Part shown: in pieces, positions 7,382-58,710 of the stretch
Numbering within the stretch: position 1 is the first letter of the stretch
Layout of the letters: the number at the start of each line of letters is the position of its first letter
NCBI GenBank assembly: GCA_023249645.1
Contig: JAHFCF010000004.1
Location: forward strand, 821-64,820
DNA from: Elusimicrobiota bacterium
GTDB lineage: Bacteria; Elusimicrobiota; Elusimicrobia; UBA1565; UBA9628
Direction of reading: 5' to 3'
DNA length: 64,000 nucleotides
Position numbers and translations under genes: made by a program
The notes under the pieces: model-generated
The model's database searches: none
Told to the model about the DNA's origin: nothing
What the model saw: only the letters and a program-made list of their open reading frames with translations

Positions 7382-7395
7382 GATGATTTTTGTCA
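7382..7395. promoter_or_regulatory. ATGAT-N4-GTCAT inverted-repeat box upstream of Rieske/cyt b/multiheme operon
   Basis: ATGATttttGTCAT at 7382-7395 in AT-rich 115-nt intergenic gap; same box architecture recurs at 11641, 11663, 24934, 58689. Confidence 0.3.
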
Positions 7396-7479
7396 TTTTT
7401 CTTGAGCGCGATTATAACTATGATGCATCTTGAGGATATGGAACAATTTCCTTTATTCCCCGCCGGGAGGGCTTGAGTC

Positions 7480-7914
7480 GTGGAATCCATGACCCGCAAA
7501 AGATTCTTGAACCTGCTCCTGGGCGGCGGCGTGCTGGGCTGCCTCGGCTCGGTGATCTATCCCGTCCTGCGTTATCTGCTGCCGCCCGAACAGGTGGAGG
7601 CCGAGCCGGACACGCTGAAGGCCGGGACGATGAAGGATTTTCCCATCGGAGCCAGCAAGATCTTCAAGTTCGGCCGCCAACCCGTCATCGTGATCCGCGA
7701 CGTCAAGGGCGTCTTCCACGCCTTGACCGCGACGTGCACGCATCTCGACTGCATCGTACAATACAGCAAGGAAGCGGACCTGATCTGGTGCGCCTGCCAT
7801 AATGGGAAATACGATCTGAGCGGCAAGAACATCTCGGGTCCGCCGCCCCGGCCGCTGCAGGCGTTCACGGTGAGCGTCAAGGGCGAGGATGTCCTGGTGG
7901 TGAGGACGGCATGA
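7480..7914 (+). CDS. Rieske [2Fe-2S] subunit of a cytochrome bc/b6f-type complex
   Basis: CTHLDC...CACHNGKY Rieske boxes, N-terminal RKRFLN Tat-like signal; GGAGG RBS 9 nt upstream of GTG 7480. Confidence 0.9.
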   Translation: MESMTRKRFLNLLLGGGVLGCLGSVIYPVLRYLLPPEQVEAEPDTLKAGTMKDFPIGASKIFKFGRQPVIVIRDVKGVFHALTATCTHLDCIVQYSKEADLIWCACHNGKYDLSGKNISGPPPRPLQAFTVSVKGEDVLVVRTA

Positions 7915-8969
7915 ACGTTCTCAGCGGCCAGCTGCTGGATTGGGTCGATGAAAGGCTGCATGTGCGCCCGCTCATCGAGATGGCCCGGCATAAGGCCGTG
8001 CCGGTGCACCGGGGCAGCGTTTTCTATTACGCGGGCGGGGTCTGTCTCTTCCTTTTTATCCTGCAGGTGGCTTCGGGCATCCTCCTCTTGATGTACTATC
8101 GCGTGGGGGCCGACTCTTCCTATGAGAGCGTCCGGTACATCTCCGCGAAGGTGTCCTTCGGCTGGCTCATCCGTTCGGTCCACAGCTGGGGCGCCAACAT
8201 CATGATCTTCTTCGTGCTCACGCATATGTTCAGCGTCTTCCTGATGAAGGCCTTCCGCAATCCCCGGGAACTGACCTGGATGTCCGGCTGCGTCCTTTTG
8301 GGCCTGTCCATGGCTTTCGGATTCAGCGGGTATCTTCTGCCCTGGAACGAGCTGGCCTTCTTCGCCACGAAAGTGGGGACCGACATCATCGGCCAGGTCC
8401 CTCTCGTCGGCCATTGGATGCTCAAGATCGTCCGCGGCGGCGACGAGGTCACGGGGGCGACGCTTTCGCGATTCTTCGGCCTTCACGTGGCCGTGCTTCC
8501 GGCGCTGCTGTCTGTGACCATCGGGCTGCATCTGACTTTCGTGCAGATCCAGGGCATGGCCGAGGTGCGAGAGGCCAAGAAGACCATGCCTTTCTTCCCG
8601 AATTTCTTCCTGCGGGACGCCATGCTCTGGTTGGTGGTCTTGAACGCGGTCGCGATCCTGTCGGTCTTCTTCCCCTGGGAATTGGGCAAGAAGGCCGAGG
8701 CCTTGTCTTCGGCGCCGGCCGGCATCAAGCCTGAATGGTATTTCCTGTCGCAGTACCAGTTCCTCAAGCTCCTGCCGCCGCGCATCCTCCTGATCCCCGG
8801 CGAGCTCTGGGGGATCATGGTGCTCGGTACGACCGGAGGCCTTTTGTTCCTGACGCCCTTCTGGGAGAAAGCCTTGCCTGAAGAGAGGAAAGAGATCGTC
8901 GTCCGCCTGCTCGGTTGGGGAGGCCTGGCCGTGCTCCTGGCCATGACCCTGTGGGGGTACCTCTCATGA
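7911..8969 (+). CDS. Cytochrome b (fused cytochrome b6 / subunit IV type) of the bc complex
   Basis: 352 aa, multiple TM helices with conserved His pairs, PEWYF motif; ATGA overlap with Rieske gene. Confidence 0.9.
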   Translation: MNVLSGQLLDWVDERLHVRPLIEMARHKAVPVHRGSVFYYAGGVCLFLFILQVASGILLLMYYRVGADSSYESVRYISAKVSFGWLIRSVHSWGANIMIFFVLTHMFSVFLMKAFRNPRELTWMSGCVLLGLSMAFGFSGYLLPWNELAFFATKVGTDIIGQVPLVGHWMLKIVRGGDEVTGATLSRFFGLHVAVLPALLSVTIGLHLTFVQIQGMAEVREAKKTMPFFPNFFLRDAMLWLVVLNAVAILSVFFPWELGKKAEALSSAPAGIKPEWYFLSQYQFLKLLPPRILLIPGELWGIMVLGTTGGLLFLTPFWEKALPEERKEIVVRLLGWGGLAVLLAMTLWGYLS

Positions 8970-10201
8970 GGCGCGTGGCGATGACCGTCCTGCTCTCGAT
9001 GCTCACGGCGGGCCCGGCTGCGGCCGTCCAGAACCAATGCGCCGTCTGCCATGCGACTTTGGGCGAGAAGCATCAGGCCATCCTCAAAGCCTTCGACAAC
9101 GACATCCACCGGGAGCGGGGGCTGTCCTGCGATTCCTGCCACGGCGGCAACCCGGCTCTCGACGATGCGGCGGCGGCCATGAGTCCGGATGCGGGCTTTG
9201 TGGGCGCGCCCTCCAAGGCGGACATGCCCAAGTTCTGCGGAAAATGCCATTCCAATCCTGCTTACATGAAGAAGTTCAACCCCTCTCTCCCCGTCGACCA
9301 GGAGCTGACGTACTACACCAGCGTCCATGGACAGAGGCTCAAGGCCGGCGATGCCGCTGTGGCCGCCTGCGCGGACTGCCACATCGCGCACTCCATCAGG
9401 CCGGCCAAGGATCCCACATCCTCCGTCTATGTGAAGAACATCCCGCAGACCTGCGGCAAGTGTCACTCGAATGTCCAGCTGATGGCTCCCTACAAGATCC
9501 CCACCGATCAGCTCGCCCAGTACACCAGCAGCGTGCATGGCAAGGCTCTCTTTGAGAAAGGCGATACCGCCGCTCCGGTCTGCACCACCTGCCACGGCAA
9601 CCACGGAGCCGTCCCGCCGGGCGTCGAGAACATCGGCCAGGTCTGCGGCATGTGCCACGTGCACAACGCGGAGTTCTTCCAGTCCAGCCCCATGGCCAAG
9701 CCCTGGGCCAAACGCAAGTTCCACATGTGCGCCACCTGCCATCATGAGCACGACATCCAGCACCCGACCGCGCAGCTGCTTTCGCCGGACAACGGCATCT
9801 GCATGAAATGCCACAGTCCTTCATCCCCGCAGATCGCGGTCGCTTCCGCCATGCAGAAGAAGCTGGAGTCCATCGAGGACGCTTACCAGCGCGCCCAGAA
9901 GGACATTCTCGCGGCCGAGGAGAAGGGCATGGACATGGCCGAGGCTCGCGATCTTTGGGACGCCTCGCGCATGGCCATGTACCAGTCCAAGACGGCGATC
10001 CATCATTTCAGCGCGGCGAGTGTGGCCGAGGTGGCTGATCCGGGGATCCAGAACGCGGAGAAGGCCGATCAGGCGGCCAAGGATGCGGCGGCGGATTTCC
10101 AGAACCGCCGCATCGGTCTCGGGGTCGCCAGCCTGTTCATCACCTTCCTGGTGGTGGTCATCTACCTCAAGATCAAGGACTTCGAATCGTCCCAGGGCTG
10201 A
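8966..10201 (+). CDS. Nonaheme c-type cytochrome, C-terminally membrane anchored, third subunit of the Rieske/cyt b complex
   Basis: Signal peptide, 9 CxxCH motifs (CAVCH, CDSCH, CGKCH, CADCH, CGKCH, CTTCH, CGMCH, CATCH, CMKCH), C-terminal TM helix; ATGA overlap with cyt b. Confidence 0.85.
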   Translation: MRRVAMTVLLSMLTAGPAAAVQNQCAVCHATLGEKHQAILKAFDNDIHRERGLSCDSCHGGNPALDDAAAAMSPDAGFVGAPSKADMPKFCGKCHSNPAYMKKFNPSLPVDQELTYYTSVHGQRLKAGDAAVAACADCHIAHSIRPAKDPTSSVYVKNIPQTCGKCHSNVQLMAPYKIPTDQLAQYTSSVHGKALFEKGDTAAPVCTTCHGNHGAVPPGVENIGQVCGMCHVHNAEFFQSSPMAKPWAKRKFHMCATCHHEHDIQHPTAQLLSPDNGICMKCHSPSSPQIAVASAMQKKLESIEDAYQRAQKDILAAEEKGMDMAEARDLWDASRMAMYQSKTAIHHFSAASVAEVADPGIQNAEKADQAAKDAAADFQNRRIGLGVASLFITFLVVVIYLKIKDFESSQG

Positions 10202-10208
10202 TCGCTTC

Positions 10209-11630
10209 GTGAATCGGCACGAGAGGCTGGTCGTTCTCATCTGGGTCGCTGGCTCCTTGGCCGGATGCGCCGCCCCTTTGATGCAGGCGTCGACGAAGGG
10301 GGATGCCGAGGCCGCCAGGGCCTGGCTCGACAAGGGTGCGGACCCCGACGTGCGCGGAGGGTATCGCCATGGGGAGACCGCCCTCATGGCCGCCGCGGCG
10401 GGGGGGCATCTCCCCGTCGTCAAGCTTCTCGTGGAACGAGGAGCGAAGGTCAACGCCGCCGGCGATCGCGGAGAAACCGCTCTGATGCGGGCCGTGCATC
10501 ATGGATACCTGCCCATCGTCCAATACCTGATCGAGAAAGGCGCGGACGTCAATCACAAAGGGATACAGGGTACGACCGCCCTGCATTATGCGGCCTGGAG
10601 CAGCCGTGACGAGATCGTCCAATGCCTCTTGGACCATGGCGCTGACGTCAACGCCGCCGACGAGATGACGATCGGCCGTACGCCTCTGGGCCTGGCGGCC
10701 TATTTCGGCGATCAGGCCGTGGCGCAAGTTCTTCTGAGTCGCGGTGCGGATGCGCGCATCCTTGCGGCCAACGGCAAGCTGCCGGCGGAGCTCGCGACCC
10801 AGCGGGGCCATGGGGAGATCTCCCAAATGATCCGGCGCGCCATGGCCGGAGAATTACCCCAGGCGGCGGCATCGGCCCCGGCCTCCTTTTCCGATGAAGA
10901 CATGCCCCAATACCATCTCCGCCAGAAGCCGGACAATTACGCCGTTGTGGTGGGAGTCTCGAACTATGCGGGCCTGCCTCAGGCGCCTTTCGCGCGCCAC
11001 GATGCCCAAGCCGTGCGCGATCATCTCGCCGCCCTGGGCACCCCGCTCGACCACATCCTGTTTCTGACCGACAACGAGTCCACCCGGGCTGGTCTGGTCA
11101 AAACCCTGGAGGCGCGCCTTCCCCGTCTTGCTCAGGAACGCTCCACGGTTTTTTTCTATTTTTCAGGGCACGCGCTTCTCGAACCCAAGACCGGACGCAT
11201 CTTTTTGGCGCCCATGGATGGCGACGCCGAATTCCTTGAAGAGACGGCCTACCCGCTGGAGCGCCTCTCTCAGGATTTGGGAGGGCTCAAGGCGGCTCGC
11301 GTCCTGGCGATGTTGGAATGGGACTTCCCAGGAGTCCAGGAGCCGTCAGTCTCAACTCCAGCGCCCATGGGGAAAATCCTGGCATGGACATCTTCTCGTC
11401 CTGGGGAGTTTTCCGGTACGCTCCCGGAGCAGAGCCATGGGGCATTCACCTACTTCCTGCTGCGCGGTCTCAATGGCGCGGGCCAAGACGGCGCCGGCGC
11501 AATCACGGCCCGAGCCCTCTACGATTATGCATCGGCGCACGTGCAGGAGACAGCGCGCCGGCTCGGCCGCGAGCAGACTCCTCAATGGTCGGCCGTTTCC
11601 GCTGGAGCGGATTCTCTGAGATTCCGCTAG
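10209..11630 (+). CDS. Lipoprotein with ankyrin repeats fused to a caspase-like (peptidase C14) domain
   Basis: GTG start gives lipobox LAGC; >=5 ankyrin repeats (GETALMxAxxxGHLxxVxxLxxxGAxVN); C-terminal YAVVVGVSNY...FFYFSGHA caspase His-Gly block. Confidence 0.75.
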   Translation: MNRHERLVVLIWVAGSLAGCAAPLMQASTKGDAEAARAWLDKGADPDVRGGYRHGETALMAAAAGGHLPVVKLLVERGAKVNAAGDRGETALMRAVHHGYLPIVQYLIEKGADVNHKGIQGTTALHYAAWSSRDEIVQCLLDHGADVNAADEMTIGRTPLGLAAYFGDQAVAQVLLSRGADARILAANGKLPAELATQRGHGEISQMIRRAMAGELPQAAASAPASFSDEDMPQYHLRQKPDNYAVVVGVSNYAGLPQAPFARHDAQAVRDHLAALGTPLDHILFLTDNESTRAGLVKTLEARLPRLAQERSTVFFYFSGHALLEPKTGRIFLAPMDGDAEFLEETAYPLERLSQDLGGLKAARVLAMLEWDFPGVQEPSVSTPAPMGKILAWTSSRPGEFSGTLPEQSHGAFTYFLLRGLNGAGQDGAGAITARALYDYASAHVQETARRLGREQTPQWSAVSAGADSLRFR

Positions 11631-11640
11631 TTTTTTAAAC
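11607..11640 (+). terminator. Weak candidate intrinsic terminator after ankyrin-caspase gene
   Basis: agcgga-(11 nt)-tccgct stem followed by TAGTTTTTT. Confidence 0.25.
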
Positions 11641-11676
11641 ATGACAAATATCATCTTTAACCTTGATGTCTGTCAT
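11641..11676. promoter_or_regulatory. Two tandem ATGAY-N4-RTCAT boxes upstream of the Cyc2-like gene
   Basis: ATGACaaatATCAT (11641-11654) and TTGATgtctGTCAT (11663-11676), 70-100 nt upstream of start at 11743. Confidence 0.3.
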
Positions 11677-11742
11677 TCTCTTGAAAAATAGGAATTGTTA
11701 GATTCTTCAGCCGTTGAATTTTAAAAACAATCAGGGGGAAAC

Positions 11743-13092
11743 ATGCCAGAAGCACAAGGAACCGGGAGCAAAAAATTCGGAGTCGGCTTTATTCTCTTTT
11801 CGGTGCTTTTCACAGCCTGGCTTGTTCCGCCTCTGTATCGCGGGATCCAAGGGATCTGCCCCATGCGGCCGGGCCTTATTAAGGAAGCAGGGGCTGTCCC
11901 TGGCTTCGCCCGCAAATACGGCCTGAGCTGCTCACAGTGCCACACGGCCTGGCCCCTCCTCAATGATTACGGCCGGCAGTTCAAGCTCAACGGCTATGTG
12001 CGCGAACCGGGAAGCAAGGAAGGAGTTTTGGAAGGGTCGGGAGGGTATTGGACTGAGAAGATATTCCCCTGGGGCGTGGTGGCGCGTTCGCGGCCCTATG
12101 ACAAGAACACGACCGTCGACAGGGAGTTCCGCTTCCAACCTATCCAGGACGCGGACTTCTTCGTCGCTGGCGGGGACGCGGCCAAGCATATCTCCTGGTT
12201 CGGAGAGGTCGACGCCAACAACACGACCGACACGGCCTTCAGCGTGAACATGGCCGACATCCAAGCGGGCTACCATCCTAGCCAGTACCTCAACATCATC
12301 GCCGCCCGCCGCGGTTTCTTCGTCATGGATCCCTACCAGAACATCTCCAACTTCGGCAGCCCGACGATCACGGGACGCGCCATCGCCGGAGGCCAGACCG
12401 ACCAGGGCAACCTCTCGGGCAACGTGATGGACCAGACCACCCAGACCATGTTGGCTTTCGGTGAGGTGGACAAAGAGGGATTGGGAGCGCTCTACTACGC
12501 CGCGGGCATGTCGGCCGGAAACGCCAACGACACCGGCACGAGCGCCAAGGCCGGCAACCTGCGCCTGGCCTACGACACGCTCAAGGGCCTCGAGATCGGG
12601 GCCTTCGGCAGCTCGGGACGCGAATACAACGGGCTGGTGGATCAGAACGGCAACCAAGACCGGGTCAAGTTCACCAAATACGGGCTCGACTACACGCTCG
12701 AGGCCAAGGGCTTTGTCAGCCGCGGCGCCTGTCTCGTGTCCAACGAAAAGGACGAACAGTTGGCCAACTCAACGGTGGAGGTGGATGAGAACGGCAATCC
12801 CGTGATCAAGTCCACCACCAAGGCCGCCTATGCCGAACTTCTCTATGTCTATAAGAGGCAGGGCGACACGTTCCCGTTCCTCGTGCCCTTGGTGCGCGAG
12901 AACTGGTACACGACCTTCAACGGCAAGAGGAGCTTCAACTACGTCACGGCCCAGCTGGCCCATTACTTCGCTCCCAACATGAAGGGATTCGTGGAATGGT
13001 CCGGAGACACCAAGCAGGACTTGCAGGGCGTCAATAACGTGAGCTCTGCCAAGAGTTCGCGGTGGAGCCTGCAGTTCGAATTGGGCTTCTAG
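11743..13092 (+). CDS. Candidate Cyc2-like fused monoheme cytochrome c / outer-membrane beta-barrel porin
   Basis: Signal peptide, single CxxCH (CSQCH) within first ~70 aa, then ~380 aa of alternating amphipathic beta-strand-like sequence ending in ...LQFELGF (C-terminal Phe typical of OM barrels). Confidence 0.6.
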   Translation: MPEAQGTGSKKFGVGFILFSVLFTAWLVPPLYRGIQGICPMRPGLIKEAGAVPGFARKYGLSCSQCHTAWPLLNDYGRQFKLNGYVREPGSKEGVLEGSGGYWTEKIFPWGVVARSRPYDKNTTVDREFRFQPIQDADFFVAGGDAAKHISWFGEVDANNTTDTAFSVNMADIQAGYHPSQYLNIIAARRGFFVMDPYQNISNFGSPTITGRAIAGGQTDQGNLSGNVMDQTTQTMLAFGEVDKEGLGALYYAAGMSAGNANDTGTSAKAGNLRLAYDTLKGLEIGAFGSSGREYNGLVDQNGNQDRVKFTKYGLDYTLEAKGFVSRGACLVSNEKDEQLANSTVEVDENGNPVIKSTTKAAYAELLYVYKRQGDTFPFLVPLVRENWYTTFNGKRSFNYVTAQLAHYFAPNMKGFVEWSGDTKQDLQGVNNVSSAKSSRWSLQFELGF

Positions 13093-13111
13093 TCCGACAG
13101 GAGTTCTGTTC

Positions 13112-13758: not shown

Positions 13759-13782
13759 TTTACTTTCAGCGCTGAAAGTAAA
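13759..13782. promoter_or_regulatory. 24-bp perfect palindrome (TTTACTTTCAGC|GCTGAAAGTAAA) upstream of actA; candidate operator
   Basis: Perfect inverted repeat in the 236-nt AT-rich gap before ACIII operon, ~26 nt upstream of a TATAAT (13808-13813). Confidence 0.35.
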
Positions 13783-17819: not shown

Positions 17820-19196
17820 ATGTCTGAAAAACATTTCTCAGTCCTGCGCGTGCCACTCGTCGACGGCGACAAGGATTGCCGGCAGGTCACCCGGGACATC
17901 TGCGCTCCCCTTCAAGTCGGCCCCACCCGCCTTTGGTACATCAGCTTCGCCGCCGCCGTGACGGCCTTGCTCATCGGCGTGACCGCGGTCACGGATCAGA
18001 TCTGGACCGGCATCGGGACCTGGGGCCTCAATAAGACGGTCGGCTGGTCCTGGGACATCACCAACTTCGTGTTCTGGGTCGGCATCGGCCATGCCGGCAC
18101 GCTCATCTCCGCCATCCTTTTCCTCTTCCGTCAGCACTGGCGCACCTCCATCAACCGTTCGGCCGAGGCCATGACCATCTTCGCCGTCATGTGCGCCGGA
18201 GTCTTCCCCGTCATCCACATGGGTCGGCCCTGGCTGGCCTATTGGGTCCTGCCCTATCCCAACCCCATGGGGCCTCTGTGGGTCAACTTCCGCTCCCCCT
18301 TGCTGTGGGATGTCTTCGCCATCAGCACCTATTTCACCATCTCGCTGACCTTTTGGTACGTGGGCCTTCTGCCGGACCTGGCCACCGCGGCCCGGGAGGT
18401 CGCCGAGCCTTGGCGGCGGCGCCTGTACAGCTGGCTGAGCCTCGGCTGGGACGGCTCCCAGAGGACCTGGTCCCACTACGAGAAGCTTTATCTGCTGCTG
18501 GCCGGACTGGCCACGCCGCTGGTCTTCTCCGTGCACACCATCGTCAGCTTCGACTTCGCCACCTCGATCGTCCCCGGCTGGCACACGACGATCTTCCCTC
18601 CCTACTTCGTCTGCGGCGCGATCTTCTCGGGCTTCGCGATGGTGCTCAGCCTCATGCTCATCGCGCGCCGGGTCATGAACTTCGAGGACTACATCACCCT
18701 GCGCCACATCGACGCGATGTGCAAGATCACGCTTCTCACCTCGCTCATCGTCGCTCTGGCTTACTCGACCGAGCTCTTCACCGCCTGGTACAGCGTCAAC
18801 CCTTACGAACGCTTCGCCTTCCTCAACCGCATCGAGGGCCCCTACCACTGGTTTTATCTGGTGATGATGACCTGCAACGTGGCCGTTCCCCAGGCCCTTT
18901 GGTCCAAGCGCGTGCGCACCACGCCCTGGGTGGTGTTTCTCATCTCGATCGCCATCAATATCGGCATGTGGCTGGAGCGCTTCGTGATCATCACGGTGTC
19001 CCTGCACCGGGATTTCCTGCCTTCCAGCTGGACGATGTACCATCCGACCTATATCGAGATCGCCACCTTCATCGGCAGCTTCGGACTCTTCTTCACCTGC
19101 TTCCTCCTTTTCTGCCGCCTGCTGCCGATGATCGCGATCAGCGAGATCAAGGGCGTGCTCCATCACGCGCGCCGCGCCCCGGGGGACGAGTCATGA
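17820..19196 (+). CDS. actC: Alternative complex III subunit ActC (NrfD/PsrC-family quinol-interacting membrane subunit)
   Basis: 458 aa polytopic membrane protein, NrfD-like; position after ActB. Confidence 0.9.
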
Positions 19197-19711
19197 ACCG
19201 CCTCTGGGTGGGGATCTTCGACTCGCACGAGCATCTGTTGCGCGCGACGCGCTTGGCCCGCCAGCGCGGCTTGACGATCCACGATACCTATGCGCCCTTC
19301 CCCATCCACGGCATGGATGAGGCCATGGGCCTGGAGCCGTCGCCCCTGGGATGGTTGTGCTTTCTCTTCGCCATGACAGGTCTGACCTTGGCGCTCTCAT
19401 TCCAATACTGGGTCTCGGTCTTCGACTGGCCCATGAACATCGGCGGAAAATCCTACAATGCCTCGCCCGCGCTGCTGCCCATCGCCTTCGAGTTCACCGT
19501 CCTGTGCGCCGGATTGGGCAGCGTGGCGGCCTTCCTGTTCCTGCGCCGGCTCTCCCCGGGCAAAAAGCCGGCCCTGGGCGGCTTGGGCGCTCTCGATGAC
19601 CGATTCCTGCTGGCCCTCCAGGCCGGGCCCGAGGCCTCCGCCGAAGAACTGCGCCGTTTCCTGCAGACGCAGGGGGCCTTGGATATTCACGAGGTGGCGC
19701 CAGACTCATGA
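19193..19711 (+). CDS. actD: Alternative complex III subunit ActD (DUF3341-type membrane subunit)
   Basis: [26 protein letters not shown]... with two TM helices; ATGA overlap with actC stop; only the in-frame 3' part of ORF 18191..19711 is real. Confidence 0.8.
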
Positions 19712-22056
19712 GGCGAAATCCCCTGCTGGCGGCAGGCCTTCTGCTCGCGGCGGCTGTCCTCACCTTCCTTCTGGCCGCCCGCCGCGACCTTAAGGAGCCG
19801 CACATCCACCTTTTCAGCGACATGATCACTTCTCCCGCCTACCACTCCCAAAGGCCCAATCCGGTTTTTCGCGACGGCCAGACCCAGCAGGCGCCGCCTC
19901 CCGGGACGATCCCCAGGGGATTTACGCCGTTTCATTACGGACCAGGCAGCGATGAGCGCGAGCGCGCCGGCAACGAGCTCAAGAACCCATTGGTGCCCAG
20001 CTATGAGGTCATGACTCGGGGCAAACATGTTTTTGAGAATTTCTGCGCCCATTGCCACGGACTCAAGGGGCGCGGCGATGGGCCCGTGGCCAGGGCTTTC
20101 CCTTCTTTTTCCTTTCCGGTCGCCAGCCAATCAGCCTACGCGCTCAAGGATGGGACTCTGTTCCACATCATCACCTGGGGCCGCAACCTCATGCCCTCGC
20201 ACTCTTCCCAGCTCTCCCAGGCGGATCGCTGGCAGCTCATCTATTATCTGCGCGACCTGCAGCGCCAGGAGATCGTGCGCCTGGGACCTCTGGCCGCCAT
20301 CCCCGAGGATCCGCGCCGGCGGGGCCTGGTCTCCAGGGATTACGGGCGCGAGCTCTTCGCCCAGAACTGCGCGGGCTGCCACGGGGAGGAGGGCCGCCAT
20401 CCCTTGCCGGGCATCCCCACCCTCCATGCTCCCAGCGTGCTGGCCATCGCCGAGGACAGCTATTATTGGGACATCATCAACCATGGGCGCCGCGGCACCC
20501 AGATGCAGGCTTGGAAGGATATCCTGACCGCCAGCCAGATCCAAAGCCTGATCGCCTATATCCGCTCATGGGCGACGCCGGTGACGGAACTCACCAAGAT
20601 CCTGGCTCAGCGCGGCGACTCCCAGCGCGGGCAGACGCTTTTTGCCCGGCAGTGCGCCGGCTGTCATGGAGCCGACGGCCGGGGAGGCATCGGGATCTCG
20701 CTCAAGGCCCCTTCGTTCATGGCGATCGTCTCGGATCAGTTCCTGCGCGACACCATCGCCATGGGCCGTGAGCACACGGCCATGCCCTCTTCCTATGATT
20801 TCAAGCCCGCGGATATCGCGGATATCATCGCGTACTTCCGCAGCTGGTCCGAGGCCGCTGCTGCCTATGTGGATGTGGCGCCCCTGATTTCGGCTGCTTC
20901 GGCATCGAACGGAGCCAAGCTCTTTCAGGCCCGATGCGCGGGCTGTCATGGAGCCAAGGGGGAAGGCGGGATCGGATCGCGGCTCAACAGCGACGGCTTT
21001 TTGGCCATGGCTGACAATAAATTCCTCTATCGCGTGATCGTGGAAGGCCGGCCCGGCACCGAGATGCCCGCCTGGCGCTTCCTCTCAGCCACCGAGCTCG
21101 CCGGGCTCATCGCCCAGATCCGCGCGTGGCAGAAGTCTCCCTCCGTGGTTTTGTCCACCGGGCCGGTCAAGGGCCGCTCTGAGTTCGGCGAAGTCCTCTA
21201 TCAGAAGGAATGCATCAAGTGCCACAGGGCCGGCGGGGCCGGCGATCTGGGAACGCAGATCGGCAATCCCGCCCTCCTGTCACAGGTCAGCGACCAGTTC
21301 CTTTGGCGGACGATCGCCTATGGCAAGAAGGGCACGGAGATGCAGGGCTTCCTCAAGAGGACGCGCAACCCGCTGCCCGAGGAGGATATCGGCCATCTCG
21401 TCGCCTATCTGCGGCAGATGCAAAAAAATCCGCCGCAGGAACTGCTCAAACGAACCTATTCCTGGGCCTCAGCAGCGGACGGAAAAAAAGTTTTCGAGGG
21501 TAAGGGCAAGTGCTTCAAGTGCCACGGGCTCCATGGGGAAGGCGGCAGCGGACCTTCCTTGGGAGGTCCCGGATTTCAGAGAGTGGCTTCAGCCGGCTTC
21601 ATCGCGGCCACGCTGGTGCTGGGCCGCGACAACACGGAAATGAAATCCTATGTCCGCGGCGGCGATGTCCAGCTCGGCGAGGAAGACATCGAGAACGTCT
21701 CGACCTATGTCCGCGGCTTCGAGAAGAATCCGCCTGCCGCGCCCCGGCAGGTGGACCGCTCCGAGATCCAGGTCAAGGCAGGACGCGCTCTCTTCCTGCA
21801 GAACTGCGCCAAGTGCCATGGCCGGCAGGGGCAGGGCTTGCACGGTAAGAAGGAGGGCGAGTTCGCGCCTTCCCTGAACAACGTGGATTTCCTCAGGGCG
21901 GCCGATGACAACTTCCTGCTGGCCACCATCGCCCTGGGCAGGCCCGGTACGCCCATGCCGTCCTTCGCCAAGGGCGACGTCGCAGTCCAACCGCTCCAGG
22001 CCGAGCAGATCCGCCAGGTGGTGGCGTTCATCCGGTCCTGGGAGAGGGGAAAGTGA
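19708..22056 (+). CDS. actE: ActE-like cytochrome c subunit extended by six additional class I monoheme cytochrome c domains (7 CxxCH total)
   Basis: N-terminal TM anchor and ActE-like region with CAHCHG, then CAGCHGEEG, CAGCHGADGRGG, CAGCHGAKGEGG, CIKCHRAGGAGD, CFKCHGLHGEGG, CAKCHGRQGQG each followed by G(T)xMP Met-ligand motif; ATGA overlap with actD. Confidence 0.85.
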   Translation: MRRNPLLAAGLLLAAAVLTFLLAARRDLKEPHIHLFSDMITSPAYHSQRPNPVFRDGQTQQAPPPGTIPRGFTPFHYGPGSDERERAGNELKNPLVPSYEVMTRGKHVFENFCAHCHGLKGRGDGPVARAFPSFSFPVASQSAYALKDGTLFHIITWGRNLMPSHSSQLSQADRWQLIYYLRDLQRQEIVRLGPLAAIPEDPRRRGLVSRDYGRELFAQNCAGCHGEEGRHPLPGIPTLHAPSVLAIAEDSYYWDIINHGRRGTQMQAWKDILTASQIQSLIAYIRSWATPVTELTKILAQRGDSQRGQTLFARQCAGCHGADGRGGIGISLKAPSFMAIVSDQFLRDTIAMGREHTAMPSSYDFKPADIADIIAYFRSWSEAAAAYVDVAPLISAASASNGAKLFQARCAGCHGAKGEGGIGSRLNSDGFLAMADNKFLYRVIVEGRPGTEMPAWRFLSATELAGLIAQIRAWQKSPSVVLSTGPVKGRSEFGEVLYQKECIKCHRAGGAGDLGTQIGNPALLSQVSDQFLWRTIAYGKKGTEMQGFLKRTRNPLPEEDIGHLVAYLRQMQKNPPQELLKRTYSWASAADGKKVFEGKGKCFKCHGLHGEGGSGPSLGGPGFQRVASAGFIAATLVLGRDNTEMKSYVRGGDVQLGEEDIENVSTYVRGFEKNPPAAPRQVDRSEIQVKAGRALFLQNCAKCHGRQGQGLHGKKEGEFAPSLNNVDFLRAADDNFLLATIALGRPGTPMPSFAKGDVAVQPLQAEQIRQVVAFIRSWERGK

Positions 22057-23216: not shown

Positions 23217-24863
23217 TTAAGGCTTGAGCACCGCGCCGTCCGGGTGGCATTCCAGGCATTTGGCTCGGAAATCATGCTTGAGCGGCACGCGCTTGTGCGC
23301 GCCGATGTCGTGGCAGCTCACGCAGCCCATCATGTCGGTGTGGGCTTTATGCGGCATGGTCTTGCCGGCGAAGCGCACCGTTTCCGGAGGAACTTTCACC
23401 CCGATGCGGCCGTGGCATTGCAGGGCGCAATAGCTGCCGGAAAGCAGGGGCTCAGAGGAGATGTCGGGAAGATCGGCGTGGAGTTCTCTTCCCGCTTCGT
23501 CGAGGCTGCGGTCCAGAGTGCGCAACAGGACCGAGGCAAGGTAGATGTTGTGCGGGCCGTGGGCTGCTTGCAGGAAGGCGCGTAGACGCTCCGCCCGCTT
23601 CACGGCTGCTGCAGCCGCTGGCTGCGGGGTCTTCTCCAAGGCTGAGCGCGCGGCCGCGATCTTGTCGCCGGTCTTGGTCATGGCGGAATCGAGTTCCGCG
23701 CGCATCTCCTCCAGGATCCCCTGGAATTTGGCGCCGTGGCACTTGACGCAGGATTCGGGGGAAGGCTTCATAGTGTGGCCGCGAAAATCCGTGTCCGGTC
23801 CGGTCTCCGCCTGGTAGTGGCAGCCGTTGCAGTCCACATGGGCCAGATACATGGGGCTGGCCAGCTCCGGCAGGCCCACGGCCAGGTCCGGTCTCAACTT
23901 TCCGCAATAGAGCTGCAGCTGAGCCAAGTGCTTGTCCTCATGGCAGAGGCTGCAGTCGAAGACCAGGGTCGGCGGATGTCCGGCTGGAGCGGCGGCCGGC
24001 GCCGCGGCGGCGGCCGCGCCGGGCAGCTTGAGCGGCTGCTCTTGGGTCTGGAACCCATGCCGGATCTCTTCGTGGCAATGGAAGCAGGCGATGTTGTGCT
24101 TGGTGACGTGGTTTTCGTGGATGAATGGGATATCGCCGTAGCGGGCGAGATTCTCAGGCTGGTTGTGGCAGAGCAGGCAGCGTTCCTGCGGGGCTTTGCC
24201 CTTGCCCTGCACGGCTTCGAGATGGCAGTTCTGGCAGGAGACTCCCTGCCGGGTGACGAAGTCGCGGTGATTGTAGGTCATGTTGCCGAGCTGGAACGAT
24301 TTTTTCGGGAGATCGTGGCAGCCCAGGCAGCCCCCGATGGGCTTGAGTTCCTTGCCCTCTCCGCGCCCGCGGAAATGGCACAGGAAACAGGTATCATAGG
24401 TCACTTCGATATGCTTGCCGACCACGACTTGGGAATGGCAGGAGACGCATCGCAGCTGCCGGCCGCGGCGGGTTTCGGTGATGTGCGGCCGATGATCGAA
24501 GTGGATCCCGCTCTTGGTGAGCACCTTGCCTTGCAGCAGGCGCGTGGCGTGGCAGCCGGAGCGCAAACAGGAAGAGTCCTCGACCTCGGCAAAGGGCTTG
24601 GAGGAGTAGGTGCGGGTCACGTATTTGACTACCTGGGAGAGGGCCTGGAACTTCTTCCAGAGCAGGGTCCGGTGCGAGCTGGGGGGGTAATGACACTCCA
24701 CGCAGGCGATGTGATTGTGCTTGGAGGAGTGCCAGGCTTGGTAATAGGGCTCCATGATGTGACAGGAGCGGCAGAAGGAGGGGCTTGTGGAGTATTTGAC
24801 CAGACCGGCCATGATCAGAAGGACGGCCAGGCCCAGGCCGGCCAGCATCCGGATTGGTTTCAT
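23217..24863 (-). CDS. Membrane-anchored NapC/NirT/NrfH-family multiheme cytochrome c (13 CxxCH + 2 variant CX3-4CH motifs), ImcH-like
   Basis: N-terminal TM helix followed by FCRSCHIMEPYYQAWHSSKH...CVECH (NapC/NirT signature start), then CVSCH, CFLCH, CLGCH, CQNCH, CLLCH, CFHCH, CSLCH, CNGCH, CVKCH, CVSCH, CLECH plus CLRSGCH and CALQCH. Confidence 0.8.
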   Translation of the reverse strand: MKPIRMLAGLGLAVLLIMAGLVKYSTSPSFCRSCHIMEPYYQAWHSSKHNHIACVECHYPPSSHRTLLWKKFQALSQVVKYVTRTYSSKPFAEVEDSSCLRSGCHATRLLQGKVLTKSGIHFDHRPHITETRRGRQLRCVSCHSQVVVGKHIEVTYDTCFLCHFRGRGEGKELKPIGGCLGCHDLPKKSFQLGNMTYNHRDFVTRQGVSCQNCHLEAVQGKGKAPQERCLLCHNQPENLARYGDIPFIHENHVTKHNIACFHCHEEIRHGFQTQEQPLKLPGAAAAAAPAAAPAGHPPTLVFDCSLCHEDKHLAQLQLYCGKLRPDLAVGLPELASPMYLAHVDCNGCHYQAETGPDTDFRGHTMKPSPESCVKCHGAKFQGILEEMRAELDSAMTKTGDKIAAARSALEKTPQPAAAAAVKRAERLRAFLQAAHGPHNIYLASVLLRTLDRSLDEAGRELHADLPDISSEPLLSGSYCALQCHGRIGVKVPPETVRFAGKTMPHKAHTDMMGCVSCHDIGAHKRVPLKHDFRAKCLECHPDGAVLKP

Positions 24864-24933
24864 GATTTTTTGCCTTTGTAATTAGATAGCATATCGCGAG
24901 AGAAAACATGCATGACTTATGTTTTATATAAAT

Positions 24934-24947
24934 ATGACATTTGTCAT
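24934..24947. promoter_or_regulatory. Perfect ATGACatttGTCAT box in divergent region between the NapC-like cytochrome gene and gltA
   Basis: 14-bp box of ATGAY-N4-RTCAT type in 137-nt AT-rich divergent promoter region. Confidence 0.3.
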
Positions 24948-25000
24948 TTTTTTGGACAGGTGATTAGCAATATCATTGGAGAGCAGTCCCAGGAGGCATT

Positions 25001-26289
<1,289 letters not shown>

Positions 26290-26293
<4 letters not shown>

Positions 26294-36806: not shown

Positions 36807-36828
36807 GGCATTATCCTCGCTGTGTCCT

Positions 36829-37695: not shown

Positions 37696-37808
37696 TTTTG
37701 ATGTCCTCCGTAATTTATGATGAAACATTAAGATTAGTATGACAAAAAGGTCATTTTTTCACAATGACGGACATTATGGAAAAAGGATGACGTTCGCCGG
37801 TTAAATCA

Positions 37809-42195: not shown

Positions 42196-42944
42196 TGGGG
42201 AGACTGTTCGAGGGAGATGTTTTCGAGGGCGGTCCGGTTGCGGACTTCGATGGCCTTTCCCGTGAGACGGATGAGGCCCCGGTTCTGGAAAGAGGAGAGG
42301 GTGCGGATCACGGTCTCCGGAGAGAGTCCGAGATTCTCCGCGATGTCCCGACGGCTGTAATGGAAATGGCCATGGCAAGGCAGGGCGGCCGCCGGCGCGG
42401 GCGGGGTGCGCAGCGAGATGAGGAAGTTCGCCAACCGGGCTTCGGCCGAGCGAAAGGCGAAACTAAAGACCCGGTCCATGCTCTGGCACATGTAGCGGCT
42501 GACCCGGCGCAGGAGCCGTTTGGGAAGCTCCGGCTCATGGGAGGCTAGGTAGTCCACGAGTTCGCGCGGCAGGAAGCAGACCACGGATTCGCGCATGGTT
42601 TCCGCCGAGGCGCAATAGGACTGTATGCCCAGGAAAGGAGCCTCGCCCACCAGGTCGCCGCAGGAGTGATACATGAGCGTCAGTTCGCGTCCGCGCTGGT
42701 CGGATTTGGTGATCTTGACGTCGCCGACGCAGAGGATGAAGATGCCTTGGGGCGTCTCGCCCTCCTGAAAGATGAACTGATGGGTCTTGTAGCGTCGCAT
42801 TTGGCGTTGGGTCCGGAAGTGTTTCATGGATTCGGGCGACAGAAAGTTGAAGAAGCAGCGCTTGCGGCAGTCGCAGTCGCGGCAATGCTCGGCCGGCTGG
42901 AAGGGACAGGACAGGGGAGATGTGGGGGTTCTTTTGTATCCCAT
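42192..42944 (-). CDS. Crp/Fnr-family transcriptional regulator with N-terminal Cys cluster (Fnr-like), paralog 2
   Basis: N-terminal CPFQPAEHCRDCDCRKRC, cNMP-binding-like core, C-terminal HTH (SRRDIAENLGLSPETVIRTL); stop overlaps start of CbcL-like gene. Confidence 0.8.
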   Translation of the reverse strand: MGYKRTPTSPLSCPFQPAEHCRDCDCRKRCFFNFLSPESMKHFRTQRQMRRYKTHQFIFQEGETPQGIFILCVGDVKITKSDQRGRELTLMYHSCGDLVGEAPFLGIQSYCASAETMRESVVCFLPRELVDYLASHEPELPKRLLRRVSRYMCQSMDRVFSFAFRSAEARLANFLISLRTPPAPAAALPCHGHFHYSRRDIAENLGLSPETVIRTLSSFQNRGLIRLTGKAIEVRNRTALENISLEQSPQ

Positions 42945-43842: not shown

Positions 43843-43956
43843 GCAGGACAGTATACTAAAACTATTAGAAAGCCTTATAGAGGCATAAGGAGAAATCGTT
43901 AACGGCCGCAGGTGAGCGCATGATATGATGGACGCGACGCTGAGGAGGATCCTTCC

Positions 43957-51893: not shown

Positions 51894-51928
51894 GGAATTG
51901 GAGGTCATAAATTATGACCTCCAATTCC
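51894..51928. repeat. 35-nt perfect hairpin (16-bp stem, 3-nt loop) immediately upstream of the ORF6N gene
   Basis: GGAATTGGAGGTCATA-aat-TATGACCTCCAATTCC. Confidence 0.5.
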
Positions 51929-51974
51929 CTGTGTGATGGTGGGATGCTATCGCGTTTTGCGATACCAGGGCCTA

Positions 51975-52910: not shown

Positions 52911-52925
52911 GAGGGCTAGGTCCTA

Positions 52926-53903: not shown

Positions 53904-54060
53904 CCGAGTCGATCTCCTTGTTCGTGGGATGCTTCCCACCTTGCCTACAGGATTCTAGCAGAGCCGCGCTCGGCCGATATGGGTCTTTAGGGCAGAAAAA
54001 TAGAAGTCTTTAGACCCACTCCGCGTGGGACTTTCGACCTATGCTGTTTTTTGAGGGGGG

Positions 54061-54546: not shown

Positions 54547-54578
54547 GAGATGAGCGTAGCAAATTATGGTCTTTTGAA

Positions 54579-55049: not shown

Positions 55050-55099
55050 AAGCTCGGCCAGCCGCGTCTCCGGGGTGATGGATATGGGAGGCTGCGCGC

Positions 55100-56344: not shown

Positions 56345-56381
56345 GACACCCTCCGACGCTGCGCGTGCTGCTGTAGCTTCC

Positions 56382-58661
56382 TTAGAGTTTGATGCCCAGT
56401 CGGTCCCAGACCGACTCCCCATCCTGAATGGCAGCGGCCTTGAGGTGCGGGTAGGTCGTGAACAGGAAGTATGCCAGGGGCAGGACTCCCAGAACGATGA
56501 TGATGGTATCCGGTATGATGCGCAGGTTGCCTAGCAGCTGAACCCCGCCGCGTTCGAAGAAGGAAGCATCCCGCGCGGCCCAGAGGCCCTGCGTGTAGCT
56601 TGTCCAGGCCTGTGCGATGCCCACTGGGAAGAGTGTTCCCAGTGCCATGGCCATGAGCCCGCCGTTCATCCCCCAGAAGGAGACCTTCAGGAGCTTGTCG
56701 TTCCAGACCGAGTCCTTGACCATGCCGCGCCAGGAGAACAGCAGCAGCCCGATGGAGAGCTGGCCGTAGACCCCGAAGAGAGCGGTATGCGCGTGGTTCA
56801 TGGTCAGGTAGGTGCCGTGCTCGAAGTAGTTGACGATGGGCAGGTTGATGAGGAACCCGAACACTCCGGCGCCCAGGAAGTTCCAGAAGGACGACGCCAC
56901 CAGGAAGTACATGGGCCAGCGGTAGGGGAAGCTCTCCCCGTGCCTGCGGACCGCGCGGAACTCCATCATGCCCCTCACGACCAGGCCGAAGAGAGGCACC
57001 GGCTCCAAAGATGAGAACACCGAGCCCAGGGCCAGCCACAAGGATGGGCCGCCGTACCAGTAATAATGGTGCGCGGTGCCCAGGATGCCGGTGAGGAACA
57101 CCAGGGCGGCGGTGAAGTACCCGACCATCAGGGCGGAGCGGGCTGAGGCCAACCCCATGCTCACCAAGAGCAGCGAGATGACGCCCACCCCGAAGAACTC
57201 GAATATGCTCTCCACCCAGATGTGCACCACGAACCAACGCCAATAGTCGGCGATGCTGAGGTGGGTTCCCTTGCCGTAGAAAAGCCCGAACCCGAAGAAG
57301 GCCACCACCAGAACGGCGCTGAACACGTAAAAGCCGACCAGGGAGCTGTATTCGCTGTTCTCGCGGTTGATCACATGCCGGCCCACGGCCCGGTACACGA
57401 TGAGCAGCCAGGCGATGAGGCCGCCGAAGAGCAGGATCTGCCAGACCCGGCCCAGTTCCAAGTATTCCCAGCCTTGATGCCCGAACCAGAACCAGAGGTT
57501 CCCGAGCAGGCCCTTGATGCCCAAGAGCTCTCCGGTCAGGCTGCCCACGGCGACCAGGACCACGGCGGCGAAGAGGCCGTGGACGAGCAGGCGCTGGTTC
57601 TTCGGTTCGCGGCCGCCAACGATGGGAGCTAGGTAGATGGCTGAGGCGATCCAGGTCGTGGCGATCCAAAAGATAGCCAGCTGCAAGTGCCAGGATTTGG
57701 CCACGCTATAGGGGATGAGCTTGCCGACGACCGGCAGATAGAACGTTCCTGGATGCACGGTGTAGTGGGCCAAGAGTCCGCCGAAGGTGGTCTGCAGAAG
57801 CAGCAACGAGATGACCACCAAAAAGAACTTGGCCGCCGCCACCTGACTGCCGGTCAGAGGCGTGCGGATGAGTTTCTCAGCCAGGGCTGGCCCCGCGGGA
57901 TCGCCGTACCAGATGTGGTAGTGGTGGATGAAAAAGATGAATAGGCCAAGGACCAGGAACAAGGACAATATGCCGCCCAGGCTCCAGAGGTAGACCTCCG
58001 CGGTGGGCACGTTGCCCGCAGCGCGGTCGGCCGGCCAATTGTTCGTGTAGGAGTAATCCTTGCCAGGGCGGTTGGTGGAAGCGGCCCAGGCGGTCCAAAA
58101 GAAGAAGCGGCCAAGCTGCAGGCGCTCCTCCGCTGTGGGCACGGCGCCAGGCAGGATGCCGTAGCGCTGAGCGCCGTTGGCGAAGGTATCCTCCCAGTGG
58201 CTGCATACGTCCGTCAAAGCAGCGTTCTGCTCCGCGGACAAGGCGAGGGTGTCCTTGTCGGCGTCATAGCGGTTCTCTCGGATGATGCGCCGCGTCTTCA
58301 TGTCCACCGCGTCGCGCTGGTCCTCGGCGAGCTCCGCGTAGGACTTCGCGTAGGTCTGCGTCGCGACCTGTCCCCGGACCGATTCGACGATGATGTGCAA
58401 GGTTGCGGCGGAGAACTCCGGTCCGCGCTGTGAGCCGTGTCCCCAGACGCTGCCGTGGTCCATCAGGCCGTAGCGCTGGAATACGCCCTGGCCGACCATG
58501 ATGTCAGCTTTGGCGAACAGGGCTTGCCCCGAAGCGGCAAGCACCTGGCCCGGATACGGCGGCACTCGGTTCGCCATATGCGCGCCGCCCGCCAGCAGTC
58601 CTCCCAAAGCGATGAAGAAACTCAATATTGCCGCCCGCCTCAGATTTTTGACTGTCATCAC
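56382..58661 (-). CDS. norZ: Quinol-dependent nitric oxide reductase large subunit (qNOR, NorZ)
   Basis: 759 aa: N-terminal periplasmic extension + 12-14 TM heme-copper-oxidase-like core with conserved His (HHYHIWYG, HHYYWYG). Confidence 0.9.
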   Translation of the reverse strand: MMTVKNLRRAAILSFFIALGGLLAGGAHMANRVPPYPGQVLAASGQALFAKADIMVGQGVFQRYGLMDHGSVWGHGSQRGPEFSAATLHIIVESVRGQVATQTYAKSYAELAEDQRDAVDMKTRRIIRENRYDADKDTLALSAEQNAALTDVCSHWEDTFANGAQRYGILPGAVPTAEERLQLGRFFFWTAWAASTNRPGKDYSYTNNWPADRAAGNVPTAEVYLWSLGGILSLFLVLGLFIFFIHHYHIWYGDPAGPALAEKLIRTPLTGSQVAAAKFFLVVISLLLLQTTFGGLLAHYTVHPGTFYLPVVGKLIPYSVAKSWHLQLAIFWIATTWIASAIYLAPIVGGREPKNQRLLVHGLFAAVVLVAVGSLTGELLGIKGLLGNLWFWFGHQGWEYLELGRVWQILLFGGLIAWLLIVYRAVGRHVINRENSEYSSLVGFYVFSAVLVVAFFGFGLFYGKGTHLSIADYWRWFVVHIWVESIFEFFGVGVISLLLVSMGLASARSALMVGYFTAALVFLTGILGTAHHYYWYGGPSLWLALGSVFSSLEPVPLFGLVVRGMMEFRAVRRHGESFPYRWPMYFLVASSFWNFLGAGVFGFLINLPIVNYFEHGTYLTMNHAHTALFGVYGQLSIGLLLFSWRGMVKDSVWNDKLLKVSFWGMNGGLMAMALGTLFPVGIAQAWTSYTQGLWAARDASFFERGGVQLLGNLRIIPDTIIIVLGVLPLAYFLFTTYPHLKAAAIQDGESVWDRLGIKL

Positions 58662-58693
58662 GTATCCCCCTTTCAGATATTCAAGAGCATGAC

Positions 58694-58710
58694 TGCTATC
58701 AATGATAGCA
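58694..58710. promoter_or_regulatory. 17-bp palindrome TGCTATCAaTGATAGCA in divergent norZ / rrf2-hcp promoter region; candidate Rrf2 (NsrR-like) operator
   Basis: Perfect 8-bp arms; overlaps an ATGACtgctATCAA box (58689-58702); TATAAT at 58723-58728. Confidence 0.4.

Follow-up and report, generated by a model that had tools for sequence, protein, structure and literature searches.

The stretch of DNA analysed here (hereafter the window) comprises 64,000 nucleotides of contig JAHFCF010000004.1 from an Elusimicrobiota bacterium, with a GC content of 61.7% and short, AT-rich intergenic regions. Several of these regions carry a palindromic box of the form ATGAC-N4-RTCAT, which probably serves to switch on cytochrome, electron-transfer and citrate-synthase genes. 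It is likely that these boxes are the operators of a dimeric regulator of the CRP/FNR family, for which the FNR-like protein Crp2, encoded in the same window, is the foremost candidate, and that they mediate an oxygen-responsive activation of the FNR type. The box, its enrichment and its conservation are described below together with its co-localisation with crp2 genes; the identity of the binding protein, the oxygen signal and activation rather than repression are what we infer from them. A first-pass annotation of this DNA had proposed a regulon of respiratory operons. This idea was supported and, as set out below, refined in several points; for instance, it is not restricted to respiration, as gltA, a gene of the tricarboxylic acid (TCA) cycle, is included as well.

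The first-pass annotation listed five 14-bp boxes with a 4-nt spacer and one element with a 6-nt spacer. All six sequences are present in the window, and their positions were given exactly except for box 1, which lies at 7383-7396 and not at 7382-7395. Box 1 (ATGATTTTTGTCAT) is found upstream of an operon for a Rieske protein, cytochrome b and a multihaem protein. Like box 2 (ATGACAAATATCAT, 11641-11654) it is an A-type box, named after the A at the outermost half-site position, where T-type boxes have a T. Box 2 is the distal box in the promoter of a Cyc2-like gene, and box 3 (TTGATGTCTGTCAT, 11663-11676), a T/A hybrid located 22 bp from box 2, is the proximal one. Box 4 (ATGACATTTGTCAT, 24934-24947) is a perfect palindrome in the divergent region between a NapC-like gene and gltA; seen from gltA, a further, weak ATGAC half-site (24912-24916, score 7.9) lies 22 bp upstream of this box. 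Box 5 (ATGACTGCTATCAA, 58689-58702), an A/T hybrid in the divergent region between norZ and rrf2-hcp, is an uncertain member of the regulon. When the window was scored with a weight matrix trained solely on sites from related genomes, box 4 (19.1, the best of the window), box 2 (19.0) and box 1 (18.1) were the top three positions in 64 kb, with box 3 ranking fifth and box 5 (13.9) seventh. A matrix scan of the intergenic region in front of the decahaem gene additionally revealed an N4 box with one mismatch (ATGACGGACATTAT, 37764-37777, score 13.6), which is absent from the first-pass annotation and represents the distal box of this promoter. The element with the 6-nt spacer (ATGACAAAAAGGTCAT, 37739-37754) lies 24 bp downstream of it and is the sole match to ATGAY-N6-RTCAT in 226 kb of DNA from this lineage. 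Its sequence thus exists as reported, but its interpretation as a separate variant of the box did not hold, since it takes the place of the weak proximal partner in a tandem arrangement. As orthologous promoters carry a degenerate proximal box there, the most plausible reading is that of a proximal site which is weak or has decayed, and not of a second operator class.

Boxes of this type are far more frequent in the window than expected. In comparison with dinucleotide shuffles of the whole window, ATGAY-N4-RTCAT was found three times (0.19 expected) and WTGAY-N4-RTCAW five times (0.55 expected). Shuffling of the intergenic DNA only gave an expectation of 0.047 for the latter, and five boxes were reached in none of 20,000 shuffles. 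All five matches are intergenic, in agreement with the AT-rich intergenic siting claimed for them, and a check of their frequency in coding DNA, for which a similar value had been named as a refutation, gave five strict boxes in about 3.9 kb of intergenic against none in about 60 kb of coding sequence. The spacing is equally specific: the core TGAY-Nx-RTCA has 12 matches in the window at N4, compared to one to three each at N2, N3 and N5 to N8. A full T-type box is not present in the window.

The closest sequenced relatives of the window are metagenome-assembled genomes (MAGs) from groundwater carrying the label 'Elusimicrobia'. Phylogenetic footprinting in six MAG loci on long contigs with Crp2 homologues (L162, L163, L165, L167, L169 and L170; GC content 66-70%) showed the box to be kept upstream of orthologous genes despite diverged flanking intergenic sequences, so that the conservation test proposed with the first-pass annotation did not refute its reading. 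The gene order of the six is conserved: a NapC-like gene or gltA is divergent from one or two Crp2-family genes, downstream of which follow CbcL-like, ResB and CcsA genes, an intergenic region, the decahaem gene, the porin gene and hemA. An N4 box precedes the Crp2 orthologue in six of six loci and likewise the decahaem gene in all six; further boxes precede the CbcL-like/ccsA, NapC-like and gltA genes. The box in front of the regulator's own gene suggests that the Crp2 family is autoregulated in these relatives. A scan of species genomes with cytochrome b yielded three relatives of 68-72% identity (L002, L003 and L004). In L003, ATGACATTTGTCAT, which is identical in sequence to box 4, is found a short distance upstream of the Rieske gene; L002 carries CTGACGCCGGTCAT at the distance seen in L003, and L004 has retained a decayed copy. 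With gltA as query, the metagenomes of the Joint Genome Institute (JGI) gave nothing but loci from other phyla with at most 69% identity, which had no upstream boxes.

The relatives also define the motif more precisely. In a census of perfect 5-N-5 palindromes, for which solely their intergenic DNA was used, ATGAC-N4-GTCAT came out on top together with CATGA-N6-TCATG, which is the same palindrome shifted by one base. Position 1 of the half-site is an A in 44 of 50 cases (88%), in genomes with a GC content of 67-70%, and this count is unbiased, as the sites were ascertained solely through the TGAY-N4-RTCA core; position 5 is mostly C. ATGAY-N4-RTCAT occurs 25 times in the 226 kb of lineage DNA versus 15 times in 2139 kb from other phyla (0.7 per 100 kb). 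In the same 226 kb, versions of the A-type box with N3, N5 or N6 are at background level and the canonical TTGAY-N4-RTCAA is absent.

The window encodes two Crp/Fnr paralogues with the N-terminal cysteine patterns which had been reported for them, D-C-C-x6-C in Crp1 and C-x7-C-x2-C-x-C-x3-C in Crp2. Crp2 (42192-42944, minus strand), the proposed binder of the boxes, has an N-terminal cNMP-binding-like beta-roll and a C-terminal Crp-type helix-turn-helix (PF00027, E=6.8e-18; PF13545, E=1.3e-15; PF00325, E=7.8e-7), as is characteristic of the CRP/FNR superfamily. Its closest solved relative is FNR from Aliivibrio fischeri (phmmer, E=3e-22; 5cvr/8qto). Cys21, Cys24, Cys30 and Cys123 of Crp2, which show little or no variation among 15 orthologues, align with Cys20, Cys23, Cys29 and Cys122 of FNR, the ligands of its [4Fe-4S] cluster (PMC4672761). 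Judged from this alignment, Crp2 probably carries an oxygen-labile [4Fe-4S] cluster on these four residues. Redox or nitric oxide (NO) sensing had been suggested for the two regulators; because Crp2 conserves the four cluster cysteines of FNR, sensing of oxygen is better supported than sensing of NO. Cys13 and Cys26 are conserved in addition. The recognition helix of Crp2 reads E210-T-V-I213-R214 and thereby lacks the E--SR signature of FNR; the stretch GLSPETVIR is invariant in 15 members of the Crp2 family and in all tandem paralogues, whereas FNR has ETISR there. All 33 members of the family originate from 'Elusimicrobia' MAGs or unlabelled metagenomes. As Crp2 agrees with FNR in its domains and cysteines and departs from it in helix, operator and score threshold, it is termed FNR-like here and not FNR.

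A pairing of the same helix with the same box was also found in a Bacteroidota locus (L045), in which a Crp/Fnr gene (19151-19873, minus strand) encoding an ETVIR helix is located next to ATGACTTTTGTCAT, and ATGACTAATGTCAT lies upstream of a Rieske/cytochrome b operon. The ATGAC-N4-GTCAT boxes of this locus (9396-9409 and 19100-19113) each have a -10-like hexamer at +29.5 from their centre. This locus appears to lend support from an independent lineage to the connection between A-type box and ETVIR helix, and the A-type box may be widespread beyond the lineage studied here.

The boxes lie at fixed distances from putative -10 hexamers. For 33 oriented pairs of box and gene, every TAnnnT hexamer between box and start codon was recorded. 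Measured from the box centre, these hexamers form two sharp classes, one at +29.5 to +31.5, which comprises 8 promoters, and another at +51.5 to +53.5; about 21 promoters have a -10-like hexamer at around +30 or +52. Alignment of the +52 class on the hexamer unveils a weaker second box 22 bp downstream (ATGcC-N4-GTCAT or ATGGC-N4-GCCAT). If the hexamer is assumed to span -12 to -7, the sites would be located at about -41.5/-42.5 and -63.5/-64.5. As far as the predicted hexamers can be relied on, this layout would be the class II and tandem activation geometry of FNR and CRP. In the window, box 1 would lie in class II geometry, with the predicted -10 hexamer TATGAT (7419-7424, plus strand) at +29.5 from its centre. 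In the promoter of the Cyc2-like gene, TAGATT (11699-11704, plus strand) is at +29.5 from box 3 and at +51.5 from box 2, with predicted positions of about -41.5 for box 3 and -63.5 for box 2. The predicted -10 hexamer of gltA (TATCAT, 24971-24976, plus strand) is at +30.5 from the centre of box 4, and the gltA promoter of L162 and the NapC-like promoters of L163 and L165 have boxes at +30.5/+31.5 from a -10. For the decahaem promoter, TAAATT (37712-37717, minus strand) is at +53.5 from the box at 37764-37777, a distance that matches the orthologous promoters in L162, L163, L165, L167 and L170; this hexamer is uncertain, as it leaves almost no leader before the Shine-Dalgarno sequence GGAGGA (37704-37709).

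Short leaders were also seen elsewhere. The -10-like hexamers of Crp2 orthologues lie no more than 9-10 nt before the ATG (L162 9926-10003, L165 9927-10003, L163 10757-10834), and rrf2 of the window has a TATAAT 6 nt before its ATG (58720-58734), which suggests, from these distances, leaderless transcripts in both cases. A sigma-54 promoter at box 4 was considered and rejected, since in the TGGACA-N5-TTAGCA that follows it the distance between GG and GC is too large by one base, and inspection by eye showed nothing alike at the other boxes.

According to the proposed mechanism, the cluster of Crp2 would be intact at low oxygen and the dimer would then bind to the boxes, which keep the TGA-N6-TCA core of the family with an A replacing the T at the outermost half-site position. 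The bound dimer would activate transcription from about -41.5, and at many promoters a strong site near -63.5 would be accompanied by a weaker, proximal one 22-24 bp further downstream. Predicted targets in the window are the bc-complex operon, the Cyc2-like gene, the gltA cluster and the decahaem/porin genes; besides the gltA cluster, the divergent NapC-like cytochrome gene is a possible target.

A number of observations weigh against this mechanism. With the NCBIfam model for FNR (NF008365) Crp2 obtained 88.8 bits, the cut-off being 228, and crp2 of the window, located 25 bp after lysR, is itself not preceded by a box. Further Crp/Fnr paralogues may be encoded elsewhere in the genome. All promoter positions derive from predicted -10 hexamers, the element with the 6-nt spacer fits the model poorly, and the Rieske boxes of L002 and L003, which are centred 27.5 bp before the ATG, deviate from the activator layout and may act in a repressive or roadblock-like manner. 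The recognition of the A at position 1 is another weak point. In E. coli FNR the recognition residues are Glu209, Ser212 and Arg213, and Ser212 would read the first T of the half-site, a role on which the literature search yielded nothing usable. In a library of 1.8 billion proteins, helices of the E--(I/V)R type are frequent in the cluster representatives that are nearest to Crp2. As they thus occur in distant FNR-like proteins, the assignment of Ile to A is a correlation and not a demonstrated contact; Ile213 as sole, clade-specific cause of the A at position 1 is accordingly weakened, and Ile alone may not suffice to explain this base.

Among the alternatives, it appears extremely improbable that the boxes are chance palindromes or TTGACA-like -35 elements in AT-rich spacers. 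The sequences ATGACA and TTGTCA do resemble the -35 consensus, and a promoter scan even took the TTGTCA of the element with the 6-nt spacer as a -35 hexamer. Yet, 0.047 expected boxes stand against five observed ones in the intergenic shuffles, the N4 spacing is exclusive, and the motif is kept in GC-rich relatives with unrelated flanks, so that chance is refuted by the shuffles, the spacing and density counts, the palindrome census and the counts for position 1. A -35 function was rejected as well, as the right half of the box is 23 nt away from the -10 and thereby too far, and as sigma-70 scans of four box-bearing intergenic regions did not yield a convincing ordinary promoter. It is also rather improbable that the boxes are operators through which an FNR-like protein or another dimeric regulator shuts the respiratory genes off. 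FNR both represses and activates, and a few sites would suit a repressor: the Rieske boxes of L002 and L003, whose centres precede the ATG by 27.5 bp, an additional box of L003 (ATGACAAAGAGTCAT, 9567-9581), which has a spacer of 5 nt, follows the N4 box at 22 bp and overlaps the start codon of the Rieske gene, and a hybrid box which covers the start codon of norZ. Against this stand the approximately 21 promoters in which a -10-like hexamer is located at +30 or +52 and a sigma-70 -35 element is missing, a pattern typical of activator-dependent class II and tandem promoters; a repressor could do without such a constant spacing.

Binding of the boxes by Crp1, alone or together with Crp2, with redox state or NO being sensed by its own conserved cysteines, is regarded as unlikely. 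Crp1 (37809-38564, minus strand; helix TPEGVSR) belongs to a second Crp/Fnr family with 23 orthologous proteins, which carry the same lineage label as the Crp2 family, and shares 24% identity with Crp2. It keeps the E--SR helix of FNR and many conserved cysteines; the source assembly starts the protein at Met38, without the cysteine-rich N-terminus, and a C-x6-C-P motif is retained near the N-terminus of its homologues. Apart from helix and cysteines, the position of crp1 directly upstream of the decahaem intergenic region, the T-type half-sites in box 3, box 5 and the norZ box, and the location of Cyc2-like orthologues behind Crp1 orthologues in L173 and L175 would fit with Crp1 as binder. 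Against it, three of four loci with Crp1 orthologues have canonical TTGAY-N4-ATCAA boxes (TTGACAAGAATCAA, TTGATAAAAATCAA and TTGACAAAAATCAA) within the 3' end of the crp1 orthologue (L173 8798-8811, L175 8773-8786, L172 8692-8705), and no A-type box is found in any of the four. Conversely, in none of the six relatives that carry A-type boxes does a Crp1 gene lie within 10 kb, but a box stands in front of their Crp2 genes in every case, and the window contains no full T-type box. Of the two encoded regulators proposed to act on the boxes, only Crp2, whose orthologues are preceded by a box in six of six loci, is therefore the likely binder, and not Crp1, whose orthologues stand beside T-type boxes. 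Crp1 probably recognises, to judge from this neighbourhood, the T-type boxes instead.

Counted over all loci, those with Crp2-family genes contain 24 A-type and no T-type boxes, and those with Crp1 only contain no A-type and three T-type boxes, so that the type of operator seems to set the two families apart. The genes behind the T-type boxes in L173 and L175 are the Cyc2-like orthologues mentioned above, with 41-44% identity over the full length, and their promoters have the same 22-bp tandem layout as boxes 2 and 3 of the window, including a hybrid proximal box. As the distal box is TTGAY-N4-ATCAA there and ATGACAAATATCAT in the window, the box type of this promoter has changed between genomes. 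In L172, the Crp1 orthologue precedes an rrf2 gene, with the T-type box between them. The window itself carries a degenerate T-type box (TTGATTTTCCGCAA, 37821-37834) inside the 3' end of crp1, where the orthologues have TTGAY-N4-ATCAA; this copy is weak and was aligned by eye. Tentatively, and with more doubt than confidence, one could go further and regard the two co-resident FNR-family lineages as regulators of orthogonal regulons with essentially a single operator base of difference. Ile or Ser at the helix position of FNR Ser212 would read an A or T as outermost base, promoters would switch regulator by this base, as exemplified by the distal box of the Cyc2-like gene, and the hybrids, namely boxes 3 and 5 and the norZ box, would integrate both signals. 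As the pairing of Ile and A recurs in the Bacteroidota MAG, ATGAC-N4-GTCAT may then be a widespread and so far undescribed operator class for environmental FNR-like proteins with an E--(I/V)R helix.

Box 5, which had been counted as a regulon site, does exist, and its clean membership could not be upheld: it is a hybrid, overlaps another palindrome, is absent in the only close orthologous locus and thus adds to the points that speak against the proposed mechanism. The norZ/rrf2-hcp region carries hybrid boxes only, the other one being TTGACTGTCATCAC (58648-58661) over the norZ start codon (ATG 58658), which the first-pass annotation did not contain, just as it did not contain the perfect 17-bp palindrome TGCTATCAATGATAGCA (58694-58710). 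The chances are about even that box 5 stands outside the regulon, that norZ and rrf2-hcp are controlled by Rrf2 in an NsrR-like way through this palindrome as a candidate Rrf2 operator, and that the ATGAC half-site is fortuitous. The palindrome covers the right half of box 5 as well as the -35/spacer region of the rrf2 TATAAT (58720-58725), which lies six bases before the rrf2 ATG, and box 5 has no -10-like hexamer at +30 or +52 from its centre. In addition, control of hcp and NO reductase genes by Rrf2/NsrR is well known (PMC1274295), and the only close Rrf2-hcp orthologue found (L177, 62% identity) has no N4 box and an ordinary TTGACA-17-TATAGT promoter. On the other side, box 5 still ranks seventh in 64 kb with the matrix derived from relatives only, and the palindrome proves little on its own, as it is one of 11 perfect 8-(0/1)-8 palindromes in the window. 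L177, a contig of 1.5 kb, is furthermore not a strict orthologue of the region, as it lacks norZ, and the 8-mer CAATGATA is the only sequence that its rrf2 promoter shares with that of the window. Crp2, Crp1 and Rrf2 are thus all candidates for the control of box 5. An NO-responsive regulon of the HcpR/DNR/NnrR type, considered for box 5 and Crp1, would combine FNR-like boxes in front of hcp and nor genes with a neighbouring regulator devoid of cysteines; what was observed are the hybrid boxes, the many conserved cysteines of Crp1, the missing box in L177 and, in L172, the T-type box between the Crp1 orthologue and rrf2.

The gene content described by the first-pass annotation was corroborated by Pfam and NCBIfam scans. 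The operon behind box 1 (7480-11630, plus strand) encodes the Rieske protein, cytochrome b and a cytochrome c with nine haems, as counted by CXXCH motifs (these three at 7480-10201), and ends with a gene (10020-11630) for ankyrin repeats fused to a caspase (Peptidase_C14), an odd partner in a respiratory operon. The Cyc2-like gene (11743-13092, plus strand) encodes 449 residues with a single CXXCH at residue 63 and no Pfam match. Divergently from the NapC/NirT-like cytochrome with 13 haems (23217-24863, minus strand), gltA (25001-26293, plus strand) heads a gltA-pckG-TPR-icd-acn cluster. The decahaem cytochrome and an MtrB/PioB-like porin are encoded at 34872-37695 (minus strand), the start being revised to the ATG at 37695. 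The string decahaem-porin-hemA-c7 ends with a gene for a 153-residue protein (32895-33356) that consists of a cNMP-binding domain without a DNA-binding domain. In three relatives, TTGAC-N7/8-TTGAC direct repeats directly follow the ccsA stop codon upstream of the decahaem boxes (L162 17473-17503, L163 18153-18175, L165 16481-16503); the window has no equivalent, as crp1 is inserted there. The scans further identified a CbcL-like cytochrome with ResB and CcsA, Hdr/Mvh-type hydrogenase genes, an operon similar to that of alternative complex III (ACIII) and norZ (qNor, 56382-58661), which is divergent from rrf2-hcp.

The region upstream of the ACIII-like operon is the only large AT-rich intergenic region in which an N4 box is absent. 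It holds a perfect 24-bp palindrome (TTTACTTTCAGCGCTGAAAGTAAA, 13759-13782), which may be an operator of another regulator. An everted palindrome with reversed order of the half-sites, GTCAT...ATGAC (GGTCATAAATTATGACC, 51903-51919), lies in the intergenic region beside a gene with an ORF6N domain and is probably unrelated to the N4 boxes. Between lysR, whose start was revised to 43842, and the hdr/mvh hydrogenase genes, a CTTAT-N6-ATAAG inverted repeat (43874-43889) looks like a LysR-type T-N11-A site. Two tandem genes for prolipoprotein diacylglyceryl transferase (lgt, 4858-6422) overlap by 16 bp. No RNA family from Rfam matched the window.

The operator described here is thus unusual in sequence, belongs to an ordinary kind of regulon and occurs in a poorly known lineage, and it provides a concrete regulatory map for an uncultured groundwater lineage. 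The predicted oxygen-sensing FNR-type factor would co-ordinate the bc complex, the Cyc2-like outer-membrane cytochrome, the porin-decahaem module, NapC/CbcL-like quinol dehydrogenases and the entry into the TCA cycle, which would link genes for extracellular electron transfer to the oxygen status in organisms that have not yet been grown. It would also be a natural example of how operator specificity is re-tuned in the CRP/FNR family, usable for predicting regulons of E--(I/V)R proteins and for orthogonal FNR-type switches.

Compared to FNR from E. coli and A. fischeri, Crp2 has the same order of a cNMP-like sensor and a Crp-type helix-turn-helix, and the four [4Fe-4S] ligands align (PMC4672761). 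The boxes likewise follow FNR in their 5-N4-5 palindrome and, as far as predicted, in their respiratory targets and in their location near -41.5 with upstream tandem sites. The view of the half-sites as an FNR-like box with changed positions therefore proved right: the TGA-N6-TCA core and the N4 spacing are kept, whereas the operator is ATGAC-N4-RTCAT instead of TTGAT-N4-ATCAA, with the A at position 1 and mostly C at position 5. Further differences are the E--IR helix in place of E--SR, the low identity, the additionally conserved Cys13 and Cys26, and the uncultured 'Elusimicrobia' host.

HcpR from delta-proteobacteria and cyanobacteria binds wyTTGACnnnnGTCAArw upstream of hcp, norB and redox genes (Rodionov et al., 2005; PMC1274295). 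It shares the inner half-site TGAC...GTCA with the boxes of the window, and there too a substitution in the helix accompanies the change of the operator. Unlike the window system, HcpR lacks the cysteine motif of FNR, responds to NO or nitrosative stress and has a T at position 1; in the window, in turn, the clean A-type boxes stand at promoters of cytochrome genes and of gltA, and none but hybrid boxes are present in the hcp/norZ region. Other operators of the family are TGTGA-N6-TCACA for CRP and Desulfovibrio HcpR, GTAAC-N4-GTTAC for HcpR2 and TTAAC-N4-GTTAA for NssR, and co-variation of helix residues and operator bases is documented (PMC1274295). The operator of the window fits this pattern, in which the operator diversifies base by base along with residues of the recognition helix, although none of the variants listed there has an A at the outermost position; a full-text literature search for ATGAC-N4-GTCAT with FNR, which was not exhaustive, found no description of this operator either. 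In Pseudomonas putida, Herbaspirillum seropedicae and Dinoroseobacter shibae, several Crp/Fnr paralogues also divide the regulation of respiration among each other and, going by the abstracts on these species, mostly share TTGAT-type boxes. In the lineage of the window, in which relatives carry two tandem Crp2-family paralogues and a separate Crp1 family, the operator types are, by contrast, split.

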